A stretch of DNA of 64,000 nucleotides from an uncultured Bacillota bacterium. Lineage in GTDB: Bacteria; Bacillota; Clostridia; Christensenellales; QAND01. This document shows, piece after piece, positions 5,535-19,706 of the stretch. The stretch spans positions 72-64,071 of the forward strand of contig CAJLPK010000001.1 of the NCBI GenBank assembly GCA_905208455.1, read 5' to 3'. Below the pieces are notes generated by a model. The model was not told where the DNA came from. It worked only from the letters and a program-made list of their open reading frames with translations, and did not search any database. Made by a program: the position numbers and the translations under genes. How positions within the stretch are numbered: the stretch's first letter is position 1; every line of letters starts with the position of its first letter.

Positions 5535-5621
5535 GCCGAAGTGGTGGAATTGGCAGACGCGTTGGACTCAAAATCCAATGTAGGCAACTACGTGTGGGTT
5601 CAAGTCCCACCTTCGGCACCA
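5535..5621 (+). tRNA. tRNA-Leu (anticodon CAA), type II with long variable arm, CCA encoded
   Basis: Acceptor stem GCCGAAG/CTTCGGC. Anticodon loop is CTCAAAA. Discriminator is A73 and the 3' end is CCA. Confidence 0.9.
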
Positions 5622-13146: not shown

Positions 13147-13230
13147 TCCGCAGAGTTTGAGAAGAAGAGGTTGACTTTTATGTATTTTCCTCTATAATGA
13201 ATAGGTGACAATTTCTATTGTTTCCTATTT

Positions 13231-13315
13231 GCGAGAGTGCTGGAATAGGCAGACAGGCACGTTTGAGGGGCGTGTGTCGCAAGGCGTACGGGTTCAAGTC
13301 CCGTCTCTCGCACCA
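13231..13315 (+). tRNA. tRNA-Leu (anticodon GAG), type II, CCA encoded
   Basis: Acceptor stem GCGAGAG/CTCTCGC. Anticodon stem CACGT/GCGTG with loop TTGAGGG. Discriminator A73. 3' end is CCA. Confidence 0.85.
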
Positions 13316-13461
13316 AACCAATATAATCCGAACTTGTTTTCAATGGGAGATGGGTTCGGATTATTTGTTTTCTTTGGGTGTTACGAAACTACCTATTTTC
13401 GTAATGCGGTAAACGTAATCCTGTCTTTATCCAAACCAAGGGACCAATGTATTGGATAGAA

Positions 13462-13478
13462 TGTTGATTAAATCAACA
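13462..13478. promoter_or_regulatory. Perfect 8-1-8 palindrome TGTTGATT-A-AATCAACA, about 50 bp upstream of the SRA gene (candidate operator)
   Basis: Read directly from sequence. Overlaps a -10-like tagaat. Confidence 0.3.
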
Positions 13479-13527
13479 ATTTCGAAAATGTAGCAATCGT
13501 TCTATTCAGAGCTCAGGAGATAGAAAT

Positions 13528-14286
13528 ATGGAAATAATCGGATTAAAAGTGAAACACAGTGTTTTTGGCGTTGGTGTGATCGTCGAAAGGAACGATGACT
13601 ACATAACAGTAGAGTTTGCCACAAAAACCGGTAAGTTTATGTACCCAGATGCTTTTGAAAAGTTTATGAAAGTAGAAGATCCCGATATGCAGCTGGCAAT
13701 CGTGAATATCATCAAAAATTCAAAGGAGACCAATCAGAAACACCAGGATGAGGAAACTACATATAAAGTGACCGAGGAACAGCGTTGCATGGATCCCGCC
13801 GTGGTTGCACCAAAGACAGAGAAATCCAAAACGCTCAATGCAATGTTTGCACCGGATTATCATGTAGAGAAGATGGCCAGACACCCCATTTTTACCTATC
13901 GGCAGGTGGAGGCTCAGTTTGGAATTCGCATTTCTGGATTTGGTAGAGGCATCAATTCAACAGATAATACCGTAGTTTTGATTTCCTCTATCGGAAAAGC
14001 CAATGGAAATTTTGTGTATCACGATAAGTGGACTGTGGATGGTGATTACTTGTATTCTGGCGAAGGCAAAACCGGTGATCAGACTATGACCAAGGGAAAC
14101 CTCGCAATCAGAGATGCGGCGCGAAACGAGAAGAAAATTCACCTATTCATCAAGTTTTCTCCCCAGGAGTATTACTACCAGGGCGTCTTTGAGCTTGTTG
14201 ATTATACTTACGAAAACGATAAGGACAAGGACGGTGAAATCCGTAAGGAATACAAGTTCCGTCTGAGAAAAGTGAGCGGTGTATAA
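13528..14286 (+). CDS. SRA/YDG-domain protein (predicted modified-cytosine binding), no attached nuclease domain
   Basis: C-terminal 150 aa match the SRA pattern VVLISS..G.NFVYHDKWTVDGDYLYSGEGKTGDQ...GNLAI...KKIHLF...YYQGVFELVDY (compare UHRF1 SLVLAGGY.DD.D.G..FTYTGSGG...N.AL...VRVVR..YDGIYKVV). Gene GC is about 43% against roughly 56% for flanking DNA. Confidence 0.55.
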   Translation: MEIIGLKVKHSVFGVGVIVERNDDYITVEFATKTGKFMYPDAFEKFMKVEDPDMQLAIVNIIKNSKETNQKHQDEETTYKVTEEQRCMDPAVVAPKTEKSKTLNAMFAPDYHVEKMARHPIFTYRQVEAQFGIRISGFGRGINSTDNTVVLISSIGKANGNFVYHDKWTVDGDYLYSGEGKTGDQTMTKGNLAIRDAARNEKKIHLFIKFSPQEYYYQGVFELVDYTYENDKDKDGEIRKEYKFRLRKVSGV

Positions 14287-14506
14287 AAATACTTGAAGCA
14301 ACAGCCATGATTATCCGTTACAATGACAAAATTTTTATATGCCAACGCCCTGCATATAAAAACTGTGAGCAGTTATGAGAATTTCTCAGAGTGCATCGAG
14401 TGCGTGCATCAGGAAGAACTGGGGTTACACTATGCGTGGAGCGTGAGCTTATAGATCTCCTACATGAATATAGAGCGGTTTCATAGCATGAGAAGTATGA
14501 GGCAAA

Positions 14507-14545
14507 AAGCGTTGCCATGCGCCAGCATGGCAACGCCTGTCTTTT
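14507..14545 (+). terminator. Rho-independent terminator
   Basis: Hairpin gcgttgccatg-cgccag-catggcaacgc followed by ctgtctttt. Confidence 0.6.
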
Positions 14546-14633
14546 GCGATGGCCTCATCCTAAAATAGAGACGCATTGATCTGTATTCGCTTTGGTGCTT
14601 TTGCTCAAATAGACCGTAAGATCCCCCATCCGA

Positions 14634-15107
14634 TCATGCCTTGGCAGCAAATTCGGTCAGGTCTTTTTTCGATACATGATTTAGCATCTGGCCAGGCATC
14701 CATTTGGTCGTCTGGGCACAAAGCGGTTTCAATACTTCTAAAGTTTTCCCAAACCCACTTCCACCGGAGGTGGCAAAGGGAAGAATGGTTTTTCCGGAAA
14801 AATCATAGCTTTCTAAAAAGGTATGGATAATGGTGGGTGCAGTATACCACCAGATGGGGAATCCTAAGAAAATAGTGTCATAATCGGCTATATTGCCCAA
14901 ACCCTCGGCGATTTCGGGACGGGAATGAGGATCCTTCATTTCAAGAGAGCTGCGGCTGCGCGTATCCCTCCAGTCTAGATCAGCATTTGTATAGGGATGA
15001 ATAGGCTTGATTTCAAATAGATCGGCCCCAGCGGCCTGGGCAAGCTGTTTGGCAATATTCCTTGTAACGCCGGTGGCGGAAAAGTAGGCAACGAGTTTTT
15101 GGGTCAT
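14634..15107 (-). CDS. Flavodoxin
   Basis: N-terminal KLVAYFSATGVTRNIAKQLA FMN-binding motif. Also PIWWYTAP and SGGSGFG motifs. 157 aa. Confidence 0.8.
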   Translation of the reverse strand: MTQKLVAYFSATGVTRNIAKQLAQAAGADLFEIKPIHPYTNADLDWRDTRSRSSLEMKDPHSRPEIAEGLGNIADYDTIFLGFPIWWYTAPTIIHTFLESYDFSGKTILPFATSGGSGFGKTLEVLKPLCAQTTKWMPGQMLNHVSKKDLTEFAAKA

Positions 15108-15797
15108 ACGCTTATATCCTCCTTATAAGTTGAAATAATATGTATCAGAAACAGGCTTTCACCATTGGTTGGCCGTTTGTTCTCCAGGTATCTCAACGGC
15201 AATATGGCCAAACCAGCAGCCTTAGCCCCCTGCCAACGTAAAGCGTTGACAGGGATGGAAACGACCATGGAGAGATAGCCTGCCTGCCTTCTTTTTGGTA
15301 CCATCCTTTTCCAGCCGTGCAGATCAGAATTTGACCGCCTCCGCTTTTGATATGGCGGATAGCCAATGATTGCGGCAACCCGGCTCAAAGGTCACATTGG
15401 CAAGAAAGGCTGCATTGGCCTTCGGGCCCATCAAGGGAAGGAGCAAGGATAATACTGTGCATAGGCATCGTTAGGCATACCCAACCCAAAGATATTCTGC
15501 GCACTAAATTGCTCTTTGCTTTGAAATTTTCTTTTGCCACCTCCGGAAAGGGCATTGCTCAGCTTTGTTTCCCATCATTGCAGGACTGCATCAGCGGATA
15601 ATGCAGAGAATCCACACGATCCAACAGATGTTCTTTTCGATGTATTTCAGCAAGAAAATCCGTCCTTCGCCGTTCCAGCATTTGGAAGCGTTGCTGGACG
15701 GTACAACGGTTGGCAGGGAAGAGATTTGATGAAAAAATAGAGGCCCAGAAACCGAGACATCCAAAGTATAATGCATCGCAAGGGATAAGGCCAATGC
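15108..15797 (-). pseudogene. Decayed region with no intact ORF; contains a stop-truncated LysR-like HTH fragment (…NRCTVQQRFQMLERRRTDFLAEIHRKEHLL…)
   Basis: Only short overlapping ORFs in all six frames. A minus-frame open stretch of about 92 codons resembles a LysR N-terminal HTH and ends in a stop. Confidence 0.3.
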
Positions 15798-16813: not shown

Positions 16814-18949
16814 TCAGTGTAATAAGATACGATTGAGCCTTGCGCCTAAGCGGCTGAGGAGCTCATTGGAAATTGTACCAGCTTGTTCCGCCAATTCCGC
16901 AGCGGAGAGGGAGAGCGGCCCGGAAGCGCCGATGAGTACCGCTGTATCGCCGGCGGAGACCTGGGGGATGTCCGTAACATCCACGATGGTTTGATCCATG
17001 CATATTTTCCCCAGGATGGGCGCCTTTTGCCCATGGAGCAGCACATACCCGCGGCCGTCGGACAGGCTGCGCGGCAGCCCATCCGCATACCCGATGGCAA
17101 TCGTAGCGATTTTCATAGTACGGCCGGCGGTAAAGGAAAAACCATATCCAGCAGACTCCTCCGCATACAACGGCTTTACGGTGGCTACACGCGCCTTGAG
17201 GGATAAAACCGGCTGTAGCCGGCATGCGCAGGCATCGGTATCCGCTTGCGTGCTCAAAATACCGTATAGCGCGATACCAACGCGTGCATAGTCTCCCCCT
17301 AATTCAGGATAATTCAGCACGCCGTAGCTGGCCAGCAGATGGGCATAGGGACAGGGCAGGCCACGTTTTTTTAGTTCACGAAGCACAGACTGAAAGGCCA
17401 TGGACTGCACCTTGGTAAAGGCCTTGCAGCGGGGTGAGAGGGAATCATCGGCGGAAAGATGCGTGAAGATGCCGTCGATCTGCAGCTGTTTGCGGGCAAA
17501 CAGCGATGCGATCTGGTCTATATTTTCGCTGCGCTCTCCTAGACGATGCATGCCGGTATCTATTCCGATATGGACATGCAGCTTTTTTCCATACGCACAC
17601 AAGCTCTCTGCATATGCGCTGTCTATGACTGTTTGGGATAAACGGTAGCGGTGCAGGAGATAGGCTTGCGAAGGATGCGTGTAGCCGAGAATGAGAATTT
17701 CTCCAGAAATCCCGTTTTTTCGGAGCTCGATCCCCTCATGAAGGCTGGCTACACAGAAATGCCGGATGCCTAGGCGCTGCAATTCTTTACAGATGGGTAC
17801 AGAGCCATGCCCATAAGCATTGGCCTTGACAGCAGGCATCAGCTGACAGGAACGGGGAAGCCTGCTTTGCAGGAGCGCAAGATTATGGGCAAGGGCTTGG
17901 CTGTCCAATTCTATCCAGGCTCTTCCTTTTGAAAAGGAGGGCCGGGGCTGCGGCAGAACGAGAGTGATCAAATAAGCAGCACCCAGCGAAGCAAGGGAGA
18001 CAACGGCGAAATGGAGCAGGCTTTGCTCGACAAGCAAGGGAACCAAGTGCAGTGCCTTGGCAGATGCCCGGACCAATACGATAACGGCGGGGTGAAGGAG
18101 ATAGATCCAGGCGGCGATGTCGCGGATTCTATGACAGGCCGGACGTTGCCAGGACAGCACAAGCTGATAGAGAAAGACCATGACAGGAAGCAAGCAAAGA
18201 TACATGCTGTCGTGCCGCGGCCATCCAAGATGGCGCAACAGAAAGGCTTCGGCCGTCATAGCAAACAGCGAGAGACAAAGGCCTGCGGCGGATTTAGAAC
18301 GATTGACAGCAGGCATCGTGGTTCCGGGGGACAGCAAAGCGCCCAGGACAAGAAAGGCAGGCGCAAAAAACAATCCGTTTCGCGTATAGGAAAAGAGTTG
18401 GAACCCGCCTTGATAAAGGGCATCCAGCAGGGGGACAGACTGGGTTAAGCCATAGTAACTGTCGCCCAAAAGCCCGATTAGATACAGAATCAGAGAAATG
18501 GACAGAGAGCCGCCTAGAGAGAGCTTTCGGCTCATCAAGTAGACAAGGCAAAGGCCAATCAGGCAGGCAGGGAAATACCAAAGGTGGTAAAAGGTACCGT
18601 CGAACAGCAAGAGACGCAGAGCGCCGCCCAGGGTAAGCGCTTGATAGTGCCCGCCATACAGGCCAATGGGAAAATACAATACGATGGCGACGCCATAGAG
18701 CAGAGAGAGCCTTTTTAGAGATTTGACAAGGACGGGCCGGGCATCTCCCGATTGATAAAAGCGGGAAACGGTGAACTGTCCTGTGACCATAAAGAAAAAC
18801 GGGACAGCGACCCTGGCCAAAACACGGGTAAGAAAGAAATCTGCTTCTGTGCCAAAACAGGTAAGCGGCGAGGTATGGATTGCAATGACGAGAAAAGCGG
18901 CGGCCAATCGAAACGCATCAAGCCCCCCGTAATTCCGTTTTGCGTGCAT
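16814..18949 (-). CDS. vanT: VanT-type membrane-bound serine/alanine racemase
   Basis: N-terminal acyltransferase-3-like polytopic membrane domain. C-terminal PLP alanine-racemase domain (AVKANAYGHG). About 711 aa. Last gene of the van cluster. Confidence 0.85.
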   Translation of the reverse strand: MHAKRNYGGLDAFRLAAAFLVIAIHTSPLTCFGTEADFFLTRVLARVAVPFFFMVTGQFTVSRFYQSGDARPVLVKSLKRLSLLYGVAIVLYFPIGLYGGHYQALTLGGALRLLLFDGTFYHLWYFPACLIGLCLVYLMSRKLSLGGSLSISLILYLIGLLGDSYYGLTQSVPLLDALYQGGFQLFSYTRNGLFFAPAFLVLGALLSPGTTMPAVNRSKSAAGLCLSLFAMTAEAFLLRHLGWPRHDSMYLCLLPVMVFLYQLVLSWQRPACHRIRDIAAWIYLLHPAVIVLVRASAKALHLVPLLVEQSLLHFAVVSLASLGAAYLITLVLPQPRPSFSKGRAWIELDSQALAHNLALLQSRLPRSCQLMPAVKANAYGHGSVPICKELQRLGIRHFCVASLHEGIELRKNGISGEILILGYTHPSQAYLLHRYRLSQTVIDSAYAESLCAYGKKLHVHIGIDTGMHRLGERSENIDQIASLFARKQLQIDGIFTHLSADDSLSPRCKAFTKVQSMAFQSVLRELKKRGLPCPYAHLLASYGVLNYPELGGDYARVGIALYGILSTQADTDACACRLQPVLSLKARVATVKPLYAEESAGYGFSFTAGRTMKIATIAIGYADGLPRSLSDGRGYVLLHGQKAPILGKICMDQTIVDVTDIPQVSAGDTAVLIGASGPLSLSAAELAEQAGTISNELLSRLGARLNRILLH

Positions 18950-19706
18950 GGGTTTGCCTCCATTCCGTTAAGATAAATCCGTCAGTATTATTGCCGGAGA
19001 TGCTATATGGGGCGGCGCCGTCGATCTCCAGGCAGGTAGGGGTGCTTAGGTCTGCTTGCAGATAGGAGACCAGAACCTCCTGGCCGCCGCAAAGGATATG
19101 ATAAGCGGCCTGTCCATGGCGGTACTGCTTGATGAAGGCAAGATATTCTTCCAGCACTAGATGGTTCTGCTCCATGATCTTGGCATGCGGCACGCCGACA
19201 TAGCGAAAGTGCCATGGCTCGTGCGCGATGCCGGTAATGTGCTCTTTGCCTGCCGGATAGCGCTCTATAAACCCGTAGTCCGCTGCTTTGCGGCGGAAGG
19301 TTTGGCAAAGGCCGCTGTAAGGGAACTCTGGACGGATAAAATCAATATGAGCCTGTTTTTGCCCAAGGTCGATGGCGAGCCCGGTCTGGTGCTCGCTGTG
19401 GCCTGGCAGGGCCACGTATTTTTGGGTAAAGGCCAACCCGTTGTCCCGGATCGAATCGTCCCAGATCTGCTGCTGCTCAGCCTGCGCCCGCCAGCCGCTG
19501 ACAGGGACGATGTGCCGCCAGCCTTGGAAAGAATCCATCAAGCTGGAAAGAAGAACCGCGGCTCTGCGCTGCAGGCAAACGGAAGGATAGTGCTCCAGCA
19601 CAGGGACCAGGTGAGACTGGGGATCTGGGCGATAGCCGGCCTCAGCGTTGACGAGGATTAGGCTGCCGGTATGGATCTCATTTCGGGAGAGCAGAAGCGT
19701 TTTCAT
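18918..19706 (-). CDS. vanXY: VanXY-type D,D-dipeptidase/D,D-carboxypeptidase
   Basis: VanY/VanXY-like zinc peptidase motifs (SEHQTGLAIDL, EPWHFRY). Lies between the ligase and racemase genes, as in vanG and vanC operons. Confidence 0.8.
   Translation of the reverse strand: MKTLLLSRNEIHTGSLILVNAEAGYRPDPQSHLVPVLEHYPSVCLQRRAAVLLSSLMDSFQGWRHIVPVSGWRAQAEQQQIWDDSIRDNGLAFTQKYVALPGHSEHQTGLAIDLGQKQAHIDFIRPEFPYSGLCQTFRRKAADYGFIERYPAGKEHITGIAHEPWHFRYVGVPHAKIMEQNHLVLEEYLAFIKQYRHGQAAYHILCGGQEVLVSYLQADLSTPTCLEIDGAAPYSISGNNTDGFILTEWRQTHARKTELRGA

Follow-up and report, generated by a model that had tools for sequence, protein, structure and literature searches.

A nuclease-free SRA protein beside tRNA-Leu(GAG) as the putative surviving half of a mobile SRA-NUDIX module of Clostridia

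We analysed a 64,000-nucleotide stretch of the genome of an uncultured Bacillota bacterium (Clostridia; Christensenellales; QAND01; assembly GCA_905208455.1, contig CAJLPK010000001.1), hereafter the window, with a focus on a short low-GC islet that begins at the 3' end of a tRNA-Leu(GAG) gene and spans positions 13316-14605. The islet holds one intact gene, which encodes a 252-residue protein with a predicted SRA (YDG) domain, and directly behind it the wreck of a second gene, for a NUDIX hydrolase. With moderate confidence we read the islet as the remnant of a mobile two-gene module in which a sensor of modified cytosine was paired with a pyrimidine deoxynucleoside triphosphate (dNTP) pyrophosphohydrolase, and of which the sensor alone survives; how such a module would act, we infer.

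The surviving gene is recognizable by profile and by fold. For a protein identical to its product, a precomputed and unmarked Pfam match to PF26348 (SRA_ScoMcrA) is on record, with an E value of at most 1e-5. An AlphaFold2 model built from 36 homologues (mean predicted local distance difference test score, pLDDT, 74) consists of two confident domains joined by a disordered linker (residues 68-104), and the pLDDT of the SRA domain is mostly 78-95. When this C-terminal domain was compared with the PDB using Foldseek, it matched SUVH5, SUVH6, KRYPTONITE, ScoMcrA, MspJI and UHRF1 with probability 1.0 and E values of 3e-6 to 5e-4. The SUVH5 structures among these matches are bound to DNA carrying 5-methylcytosine (5mC) and 5-hydroxymethylcytosine (5hmC), the ScoMcrA structures are 5zmn and 5zmm, and SauUSI (7clg) was also matched, with a weaker score. 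By profile and modelled fold, the 252-residue protein thus belongs to the SRA family, as had been proposed for its C-terminal part in an earlier reading of the DNA made without database searches (the original prediction).

The residues expected to line a base-binding pocket are also in place. Y164, D166, Y176, G178, G180 and the YSGEG motif are invariant in an alignment of the family (A1); among distant representatives (alignment A3), conservation of D166 and G178 is still 90% or more. The two tyrosine walls, Y164 and Y176, are spaced 12 residues apart and are accompanied by the aspartate D166; in the pocket of TagI, Y55 and Y67 are the walls and D58 the carboxylate (PMC6212794). A base-flipping pocket is therefore probably conserved in the window protein.

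A second domain, which the original prediction had missed, makes up the N-terminal ~50 residues of the protein and is predicted to be a Tudor domain of the type found at the C terminus of the PcrA and UvrD helicases. Foldseek aligned it over 40-48 residues, with probability 1.0, to 7egt_B (template-modelling score 0.72 on the target) and 7egs_B, which show the C-terminal Tudor domain of UvrD bound to UvrB and to an RNA polymerase lobe. The corresponding Pfam family, PF21196, is on record for two homologues (P0101 and P0119), and an E value of 4e-4 for it was reached by two of 64 representatives. PcrA's C-terminal domain binds a motif that is common to RpoB and UvrB (PMC8318588).

The gene that has been lost was identified by homology. 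When the NUDIX partners of SRA genes at three other loci (L011, L013 and L008) were used as tblastn queries, they matched the window at 14283-14472 with E values of 1e-12 to 4e-14. A DNA alignment (A2) revealed several lesions in this copy: (i) the start codon ATG has become ATA, (ii) a TGG codon has become an in-frame TGA stop at 14376-14378, (iii) a 32-nucleotide deletion takes out most of the Nudix box, (iv) one further nucleotide is deleted and (v) homology is gone after about codon 74, which amounts to a 3' truncation. No intact open reading frame (ORF) with a Nudix box (GX5EX7REUXEEXGU) is left. As judged from these alignments, the decayed DNA directly downstream of the SRA gene is a NUDIX gene and not a nuclease gene.

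Elsewhere, the pair is found intact. In three independent homologue contexts, the reading frame of a NUDIX protein of 131-132 residues (PF00293 and NUDIX_4) opens right at the stop codon of the SRA gene or no more than a few bases from it. For a census of this linkage we took one genome per GTDB species (185,579 species representatives) and obtained 40 loci, which belong to Clostridia wherever a taxon is named; no copy in this collection is closer than 75% to the window SRA protein. An intact NUDIX gene lies 3' of the SRA gene at 33 of the 40 loci (31 found by hidden Markov model search; L018 and L046 by tblastn), and in 31 of these 33 the gap between the two genes is at most 25 bp. Either partner of the pair decays often: the NUDIX gene is disrupted in L007 and L008, and the SRA gene is truncated or split with the NUDIX gene kept in L032, L038, L048, L051, L052, L054 and L055.

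The intact partner obtained its best NCBIfam score with the NudG model ("pyrimidine (deoxy)nucleoside triphosphate diphosphatase"; 1e-35), and it also passes the MutT equivalog TIGR00586 (110 bits; cut-off 97.9). Its nearest relative in E. coli is NudG, at 44% identity, compared with 38% for MutT. The Nudix box is complete in the intact partners (GGKIExGETxExxxxRExxEELG). A few loci have an SRA-linked NUDIX that seems to continue into other sequences, namely DUF6994 in L023 (8765-9781) and L054 (8164-9243) and a peptidase M20-like domain in L044; these fusions may be real or may be artefacts of ORF calling.

The reader carries no nuclease domain that Pfam, PADLOC or NCBIfam could detect, in agreement with the original prediction. 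A homologue search returned 576 proteins, the best 120 of which are 61-100% identical to the window protein, nearly all 245-258 residues long and of the same Tudor-linker-SRA layout. A HMMER search over all cluster representatives gave 61 clusters at E values of 1e-30 or below, mostly of 220-270 residues, and the end of the window ORF coincides with the end of its homologues. Since a nuclease-free layout of about 250 residues is the norm of the family, the window protein is not a truncated SRA-nuclease, and since no nuclease was found in the protein or its conserved partner, it is not a type IV restriction endonuclease. The SRA protein has no matching model in PADLOC 2.0 or NCBIfam.

Fusions occur further away in the family. 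Among 64 distant representatives, the SRA domain is joined to HNH in four and to NOV_C in three, and also to HNH_2, McrB-like AAA_5, TIR and NUDIX. P0133 is a Tudor-SRA-TIR fusion of 429 residues; P0229 (460 residues) consists of SRA and NUDIX followed by a C-terminal domain that matches the defence protein PD-T4-1; and in P0121 (493 residues) Tudor and SRA precede a cysteine-rich domain of 240 residues that has no Pfam match. On plasmids, the SRA part has tblastn matches within genes annotated as HNH endonucleases and AAA ATPases. Where proteins share the N-terminal domain alone, Pfam scans pointed to no informative partner domain. Just one SRA locus turned up among the 2.9 million viral contigs scanned, and tblastn against phage genomes found the isolated N-terminal domain and nothing else. 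Given this near-absence from viral collections, the family is not typically phage-borne.

The DNA that carries the reader gene entered the genome at the tRNA gene. In blastn comparisons, homology to L057, a contig of a sister lineage, ends precisely at 13315, the last base of the tRNA, and restarts at 14606, just beyond the flavodoxin gene. The corresponding slot in L057 is occupied by a 1.6-kb stretch with an aldo/keto reductase (aldo/keto reductase-ferredoxin) gene. L057 is one of a set of contigs (L057-L064) defined by P0278, a variant of the neighbouring solute-binding protein that is at least 90% identical to it and much commoner in metagenomes. The gene order in this set is solute-binding protein, tRNA-Leu(GAG), aldo/keto reductase, flavodoxin, cupin, MerR, LysR and a VanT-like gene, and at the tRNA-Leu(GAG) locus of these contigs the SRA gene is not present. 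The GC content of 13316-14640 is 41.8%, compared with 50.7% on average over the 64 kb, and just 0.24% of windows of equal length in the 64 kb are as low. Because synteny breaks at the 3' end of the tRNA and a different gene fills the slot in L057, the case for foreign origin does not depend on composition alone: 13316-14605 is an insertion or replacement of horizontally transferred DNA at the 3' end of tRNA-Leu(GAG). The locus thus combines the marks of a tRNA-linked island, which are a junction at the tRNA 3' end, atypical composition and absence in close relatives. Horizontal acquisition at this tRNA had been predicted originally, with borders (13316-14640) that proved nearly exact. The low-GC patch on which that prediction drew is real as well, but it is shallower than supposed: the background is 50.7% and not about 56%, so that the dip comes to about 9 points instead of 13-21.

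No integrase gene was found within the islet, and searches around it for an att-type direct repeat, a partial copy of the tRNA or terminal repeats (inverted or other) found none, which fits a remnant left by deletion. Tyrosine integrases or serine recombinases are present with the intact relatives of the module. The terminator-like hairpin directly behind the tRNA sits in the foreign DNA, and hence the apparent terminator of tRNA-Leu(GAG) came with the insertion in this lineage. Upstream of the tRNA, a promoter-like site (13171-13198) matches at 11 of 12 positions. The 212 bp ahead of the SRA gene have no homology to any other fetched locus, and the spacer of ~134 bp that runs to 14605 has none to the other fetched SRA loci or to L057. 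The window also contains a second tRNA-Leu gene (CAA; 5535-5621), which lies 7.6 kb upstream.

Related modules circulate in gut and anaerobe Clostridia, where they occupy integrative elements and defence islands. The pair at L007-L010 and L013-L016 sits between variable defence cargo and a conserved backbone of a D5-type primase and a tyrosine integrase; the cargo comprises an MmeI-like methyltransferase, T5orf172 and a SIR2 protein of 1,048 residues in one set and a type I restriction-modification (RM) system with GmrSD in the other. Many other loci have a serine recombinase immediately ahead of the pair, and this recombinase in turn adjoins a rumA-like rRNA methyltransferase gene. In L033 and L049 the pair comes after a Schlafen-like (DUF2075) helicase, and the SRA and NUDIX genes of L049 are separated by an inserted BglII-like nuclease gene. 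The GC content of the module is 30-49% irrespective of its flanks and is below that of the flanks at 33 of the 40 loci. The original prediction had also considered an opposite picture, in which homologues are always core genes with host-like GC and no defence context; with this composition and with RM, GmrSD and SIR2 neighbours, that is not what the loci show. It had further proposed a look through orthologue neighbourhoods for nuclease, HNH, ATPase or methyltransferase genes. Defence and mobile contexts did emerge from such a survey, but the conserved neighbour is the NUDIX gene: a conserved third gene, nuclease or ATPase was looked for upstream, and the neighbours there vary from locus to locus. 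A crude regular-expression search for C5 methyltransferase motifs found none that were convincing at the 40 loci (with flanks of up to 8 kb per side) or in the window, a pattern that has been reported for modification-dependent PUA-domain enzymes (PMC6765204).

Some loci are as bare as the islet in the window. In L019 (3502-4888; a metagenome-assembled genome, MAG, of Oscillospiraceae) the pair stands alone between two tRNA-Leu genes, and in L021 (7800-9350; an isolate of Pseudoflavonifractor phocaeensis) it forms a 1.5-kb islet of 44% GC in DNA of 65% GC. The search that found no att-type or terminal repeats around the window islet found none in these two minimal islets either. In L045 (8001-9672; another MAG) the SRA gene adjoins a tmRNA gene. 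The SRA(-NUDIX) unit thus recurs as a tiny islet without mobility genes in L021, L019 and L045. As the pair in L019 adjoins tRNA-Leu(CAA), different tRNA-Leu genes act as landing sites for the cargo.

In the mechanism that we have in mind, the SRA domain would recognize modified cytosine of the 5mC or 5hmC class, flipped out of invading DNA or possibly met as a free nucleotide, and the NUDIX protein would act on the nucleotide pool. There are two options for the latter: (i) it could be the effector, set to work by an engaged reader, that breaks down modified dCTP (5m- or 5hm-dCTP) or else pyrimidine dNTPs in general and starves the replication of the invader, or (ii) it could remove 5-methyl-dCTP and thereby keep the DNA of the host from becoming a target. 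Through its Tudor domain, the reader may attach to RNA polymerase or UvrB. Together, SRA and NUDIX would make up an immunity module that is directed by modification and can do without its own nuclease. PUA-like sensors with swappable effectors, including the NTP pyrophosphatase MazG, have been reported to deplete dNTPs (PMC12871103). Moreover, a MutT/NUDIX gene of unexplained role is linked to each of at least 60 5mC-dependent enzymes of the SauUSI kind (PMC3141236, 2011; also PMC7641849). The most specific form of the proposal is that Tudor-SRA and a NudG/MutT-like NUDIX are an undescribed nuclease-free immunity against modified cytosine, in which the SRA domain senses 5mC or 5hmC in DNA or 5-methyl-dCMP from degraded DNA, the Tudor domain docks on RNA polymerase or UvrB and the NUDIX collapses or cleanses the (modified) dCTP pool, by the same logic that would lie behind the linkage of SauUSI to MutT. 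Taken as a whole, we regard this form as speculative and unlikely.

Several observations weigh against reading the islet as the remnant of a modified-cytosine sensor and its NUDIX partner. First, the ligand class (5mC, 5hmC) and the substrate of the NUDIX are, for all members of the family, predictions from sequence and fold. Second, parts of the domain assignment fall below formal thresholds. The match to PF02182 (SAD_SRA) that the original prediction expected was found over residues 164-251 with an E value of 5e-6 in a local Pfam search, but at 26.7 bits it stays under the gathering score of 30.7. Searches of PDB chains with the protein sequence and with the family profile hit no SRA entry and returned just chance matches (trigger factor, portal protein), so that the SRA assignment rests on Pfam and the comparison of folds. 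The carboxylate D166 is at position Tyr+2, whereas that of TagI and UHRF1 is at Tyr+3, and the Tudor assignment consists of a sub-threshold Pfam match (PF21196, residues 4-24, E value 0.022, 15 bits against 23.9) and a structural match of 47 residues. Third, the NUDIX partner is absent from seven of the 40 loci, and the SRA reader can therefore exist alone. Fourth, the intact partner matches the PADLOC candidate PDC-S07 (E value 4e-47), and this model has been reported in 99% of Enterobacter genomes (PMC12851794); it evidently catches the housekeeping NudG/MutT and hence speaks only weakly for defence. Among NUDIX homologues on plasmids, the closest, 54% identical and carried by a Pusillibacter megaplasmid, lies among peroxide-stress genes with no SRA gene. 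Fifth, the local protein is on a long branch (76% identity to the nearest relative, compared with a family median of 92% for nearest neighbours), it has six substitutions at the 101 columns that are at least 95% conserved, compared with a mean of 1.0, and no sigma-70-like promoter was found just upstream of its gene, whose expression and function are uncertain. All six substitutions are conservative and none is in the pocket. As a separate matter, censuses of defence systems that count PDC-S07 are probably counting a housekeeping gene.

With the NUDIX gene and the rest of the element lost, the module is probably disabled in this genome. The original prediction had offered, as one option, a standalone modified-base reader acting with a partner; this came closest, with a MutT/NudG-type NUDIX as the partner, but that partner is dead here. 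The SRA protein is identical on the 22 contigs listed (21 of them read), and the contigs read come from many different samples. Between the strain variants that we compared (L001 and L005), which are 99.3% identical over 2.8 kb of the region, the 759-bp SRA ORF has two changes, both silent. The 186 bp of the NUDIX pseudogene at 14287-14472 have seven (38 per kb), and the flanking genes have 1-3 per kb. The comparison of two silent changes with seven hints at constraint on the SRA ORF, although the numbers are small. The density of changes in the pseudogene is far above what neutral drift would produce at this divergence and suggests a recombination patch or a mutation hotspot. We infer that the local SRA gene has survived as one of two things: an orphan reader that retains some residual function, or a relic that mutation has not yet reached.

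The second of these possibilities, a functionless ORF that happens not to have been disrupted, concerns the local copy alone and is the most serious of the alternatives; we consider it a possible but somewhat unlikely explanation. It fits the loss of the partner gene and of the remainder of the element, the decay of neighbouring host genes, the lack of a clear promoter and the branch length and substitutions given above. It fits less well with an ORF that has stayed intact, and identical in contigs read from many samples, or with the contrast in changes between ORF and pseudogene. The gene also retains a good Shine-Dalgarno sequence and untouched pocket residues, and loci with an SRA gene but no NUDIX gene exist elsewhere.

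A different division of labour is that the reader is itself the active anti-invader part, which blocks access to modified DNA or brings in RNA polymerase or UvrB excision repair by way of its Tudor domain, and that the NUDIX is a safety device that destroys 5-methyl-dCTP and related nucleotides. We regard this as doubtful. It would draw on the Tudor fold, matched to the UvrD domain as bound to UvrB and to the RNA polymerase lobe, and on the binding of the same RpoB/UvrB motif by the PcrA domain. NudG hydrolyses 5-methyl-dCTP (cited work of 2001), and the same kind of NUDIX accompanies SauUSI-type 5mC-dependent enzymes, whose linkage to MutT/NUDIX genes would be accounted for in the same way. 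Fusions of DUF3427 restrict T4gt with little nuclease activity (PMC6765204). A dispensable safety device would also fit repeated loss of the NUDIX with the SRA kept, as in the window, L007, L008 and the seven loci of 40 without a NUDIX gene. However, the reverse decay is seen too, with a truncated SRA gene and an intact NUDIX gene in L051, L052 and L055, the Tudor assignment is weak by sequence, and the SRA-NUDIX and SRA-TIR fusions look more like pairs of sensor and effector.

The module could instead serve no immune function and be a mobile unit for DNA quality or regulation, in which the SRA domain binds a damaged or oxidized pyrimidine or hemimethylated DNA, the NUDIX cleans oxidized dNTPs, and the whole acts as an antimutator, a repair accessory or an epigenetic regulator of the element. 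The NUDIX does pass the MutT cut-off, a close homologue of it is found amid peroxide-stress genes, the Tudor domain comes from a family of repair helicases, and the SRA protein is without a model in the defence and family collections searched. We nevertheless think this decidedly unlikely in view of the patchy, low-GC distribution (40 of 185,579 species representatives), the neighbouring RM, GmrSD and SIR2 genes, the TIR and PD-T4-1-like fusions, the relatives that are specificity domains of restriction enzymes, and the frequent decay of either partner, which is typical of defence genes in flux.

Last, the proposal that the window protein is the sensor-only stump of a classical type IV enzyme (SRA-HNH or SRA-PD-(D/E)xK) whose nuclease has decayed, which was one suggestion of the original prediction, can point to distant SRA-HNH and SRA-AAA (McrB-like) relatives on plasmids and among the representatives, to one source that labels an identical protein "HNH endonuclease" and to the decayed flanks, but it is largely refuted and very improbable given the nuclease-free norm of ~250 residues among the 576 relatives, the shared ORF end, the lack of a Pfam nuclease match and the identity of the decayed DNA, which is a NUDIX gene directly downstream and host cupin and MerR genes in the other stretch. 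The label "HNH endonuclease" is wrong and was transferred from SRA-HNH relatives.

The features of the locus and its surroundings are listed in Table 1. Both of the stretches that had been described as decayed are real pseudogene DNA, the NUDIX gene within the islet and the host genes beyond it. Synteny with the sister lineage resumes at the flavodoxin-like gene, whose product has 76% amino acid identity to the flavodoxin of L057. The cupin and MerR genes that follow lie outside the islet and are both intact in L057; the MerR-like pseudogene keeps just residues 76-119. Directly to the right of the locus, at 16814-23509 on the minus strand, is a vanG-like cluster of the glycopeptide-resistance type, with a VanT-like membrane acyltransferase/alanine-serine racemase (711 residues), VanY, a D-Ala-D-Ala/Ser ligase, VanW, a histidine kinase and a response regulator; its Pfam assignments were read from a contig that is 100% identical (L006).

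Table 1. Features at the tRNA-Leu(GAG) locus (window coordinates)
Feature	Position	Strand	Evidence and remarks
tRNA-Leu(GAG)	13231..13315	+	ARAGORN; the foreign DNA has its left junction at the 3' end of this gene
Foreign islet, 1,290 bp, ~42% GC	13316..14605	none	blastn against sister lineage L057, gene content of L057-L064, GC statistics
Terminator-like hairpin, 19-pair stem followed by a T run	13323..13364	+	Also inverted repeat I14; directly after the tRNA, within the foreign DNA
Intact gene for 252-residue Tudor-linker-SRA protein (759 bp)	13528..14286	+	ORF; AGGAG Shine-Dalgarno sequence 9 nt before the ATG
Predicted N-terminal domain, residues 1-50, Tudor/SH3-like barrel of PcrA/UvrD C-terminal type	13528..13677	+	Pfam, Foldseek, pLDDT 81-87
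Charged linker, residues 68-104, poorly conserved	13729..13839	+	pLDDT <50; variable columns in alignment A1
SRA (YDG) domain, residues ~105-250	13840..14277	+	PF26348, PF02182, Foldseek; Y164, D166, Y176 and YSGEG motif present
MutT/NudG-type NUDIX hydrolase pseudogene	14283..14472	+	tblastn and DNA alignment A2
Right-hand spacer	14473..14605	none	Strong terminator-like hairpin 14509-14536 with T tail
Flavodoxin-like host gene	14634..15107	-	Identical contigs have Pfam matches to Flavodoxin_4 and FMN_red; the host genes to the right begin here
Host pseudogenes: cupin 15126-15529 (frameshifted, two frames), MerR-like fragment 15571-15702	15126..15702	-	tblastn with L057 proteins

Set beside known systems, the window protein would work most like the sensor half of PUA/SRA-based modification-dependent systems. 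The SRA-HNH type IV enzymes (TagI, ScoA3IV/Sco5333 and TbiR51I; ScoMcrA) share its SRA family (SRA_ScoMcrA), its fold and probably its pocket, with two tyrosine walls and a carboxylate as seen in TagI, and a further likeness is the absence of linked C5 methyltransferases, which for the present family was seen in the crude motif search of the 40 loci. The window protein differs in having neither HNH nor another nuclease, a predicted N-terminal Tudor domain instead, and a separate NUDIX gene as its conserved partner. In SauUSI, too, a modified-cytosine sensor of SRA-like class (DUF3427) is genetically coupled to a small pyrophosphohydrolase of the MutT family, but SauUSI has a PLD nuclease and a helicase of its own and the window protein has neither. 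PUA-Calcineurin-CE-HAD and PUA-MazG-HAD also combine a modified-base sensor of the PUA superfamily with nucleotide-phosphohydrolase effectors, and their sensor family is fused to TIR, HNH and McrB as well. PUA-Calcineurin-CE-HAD belongs to another PUA clade (N6-methyladenine, m6A, and m6-dAMP), employs calcineurin-like and HAD proteins instead of NUDIX and has a documented filament mechanism, whereas the mechanism of SRA-NUDIX is a proposed one. NudG (Orf135) and MutT of E. coli are housekeeping genes of the chromosome; the SRA-linked NUDIX, in contrast, is translationally coupled to a reader on mobile elements, and its copy in the window is a pseudogene. UHRF1 and the SUVH proteins also place a Tudor-type barrel and an SRA domain in one polypeptide, and the best structural matches are the SRA domains of SUVH5, SUVH6, KRYPTONITE and UHRF1 with 5mC or 5hmC DNA. 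The predicted Tudor domain of the window protein, however, is of the bacterial PcrA/UvrD type (protein docking) and not a reader of histone methyl-lysine, and no RING or SET domain is present; the likeness of the two architectures is convergent.

Full-text literature searches on SRA plus Nudix and related terms found no paper that describes an SRA-NUDIX module. What is new here is a modified-base sensor with a swappable partner, in this case a NUDIX, and no nuclease. Modification-dependent defence is usually pictured as a reader fused to a nuclease, and in this family nuclease-free readers are consistently coupled to an enzyme of the nucleotide pool. If our reading is true, the module would be a cytosine-side counterpart to the PUA-sensor systems that deplete dNTPs, and it would give a testable explanation for the MutT-like genes beside 5mC-dependent enzymes such as SauUSI. 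In this genome the locus is a decayed remnant, and its interest lies at the level of the family.

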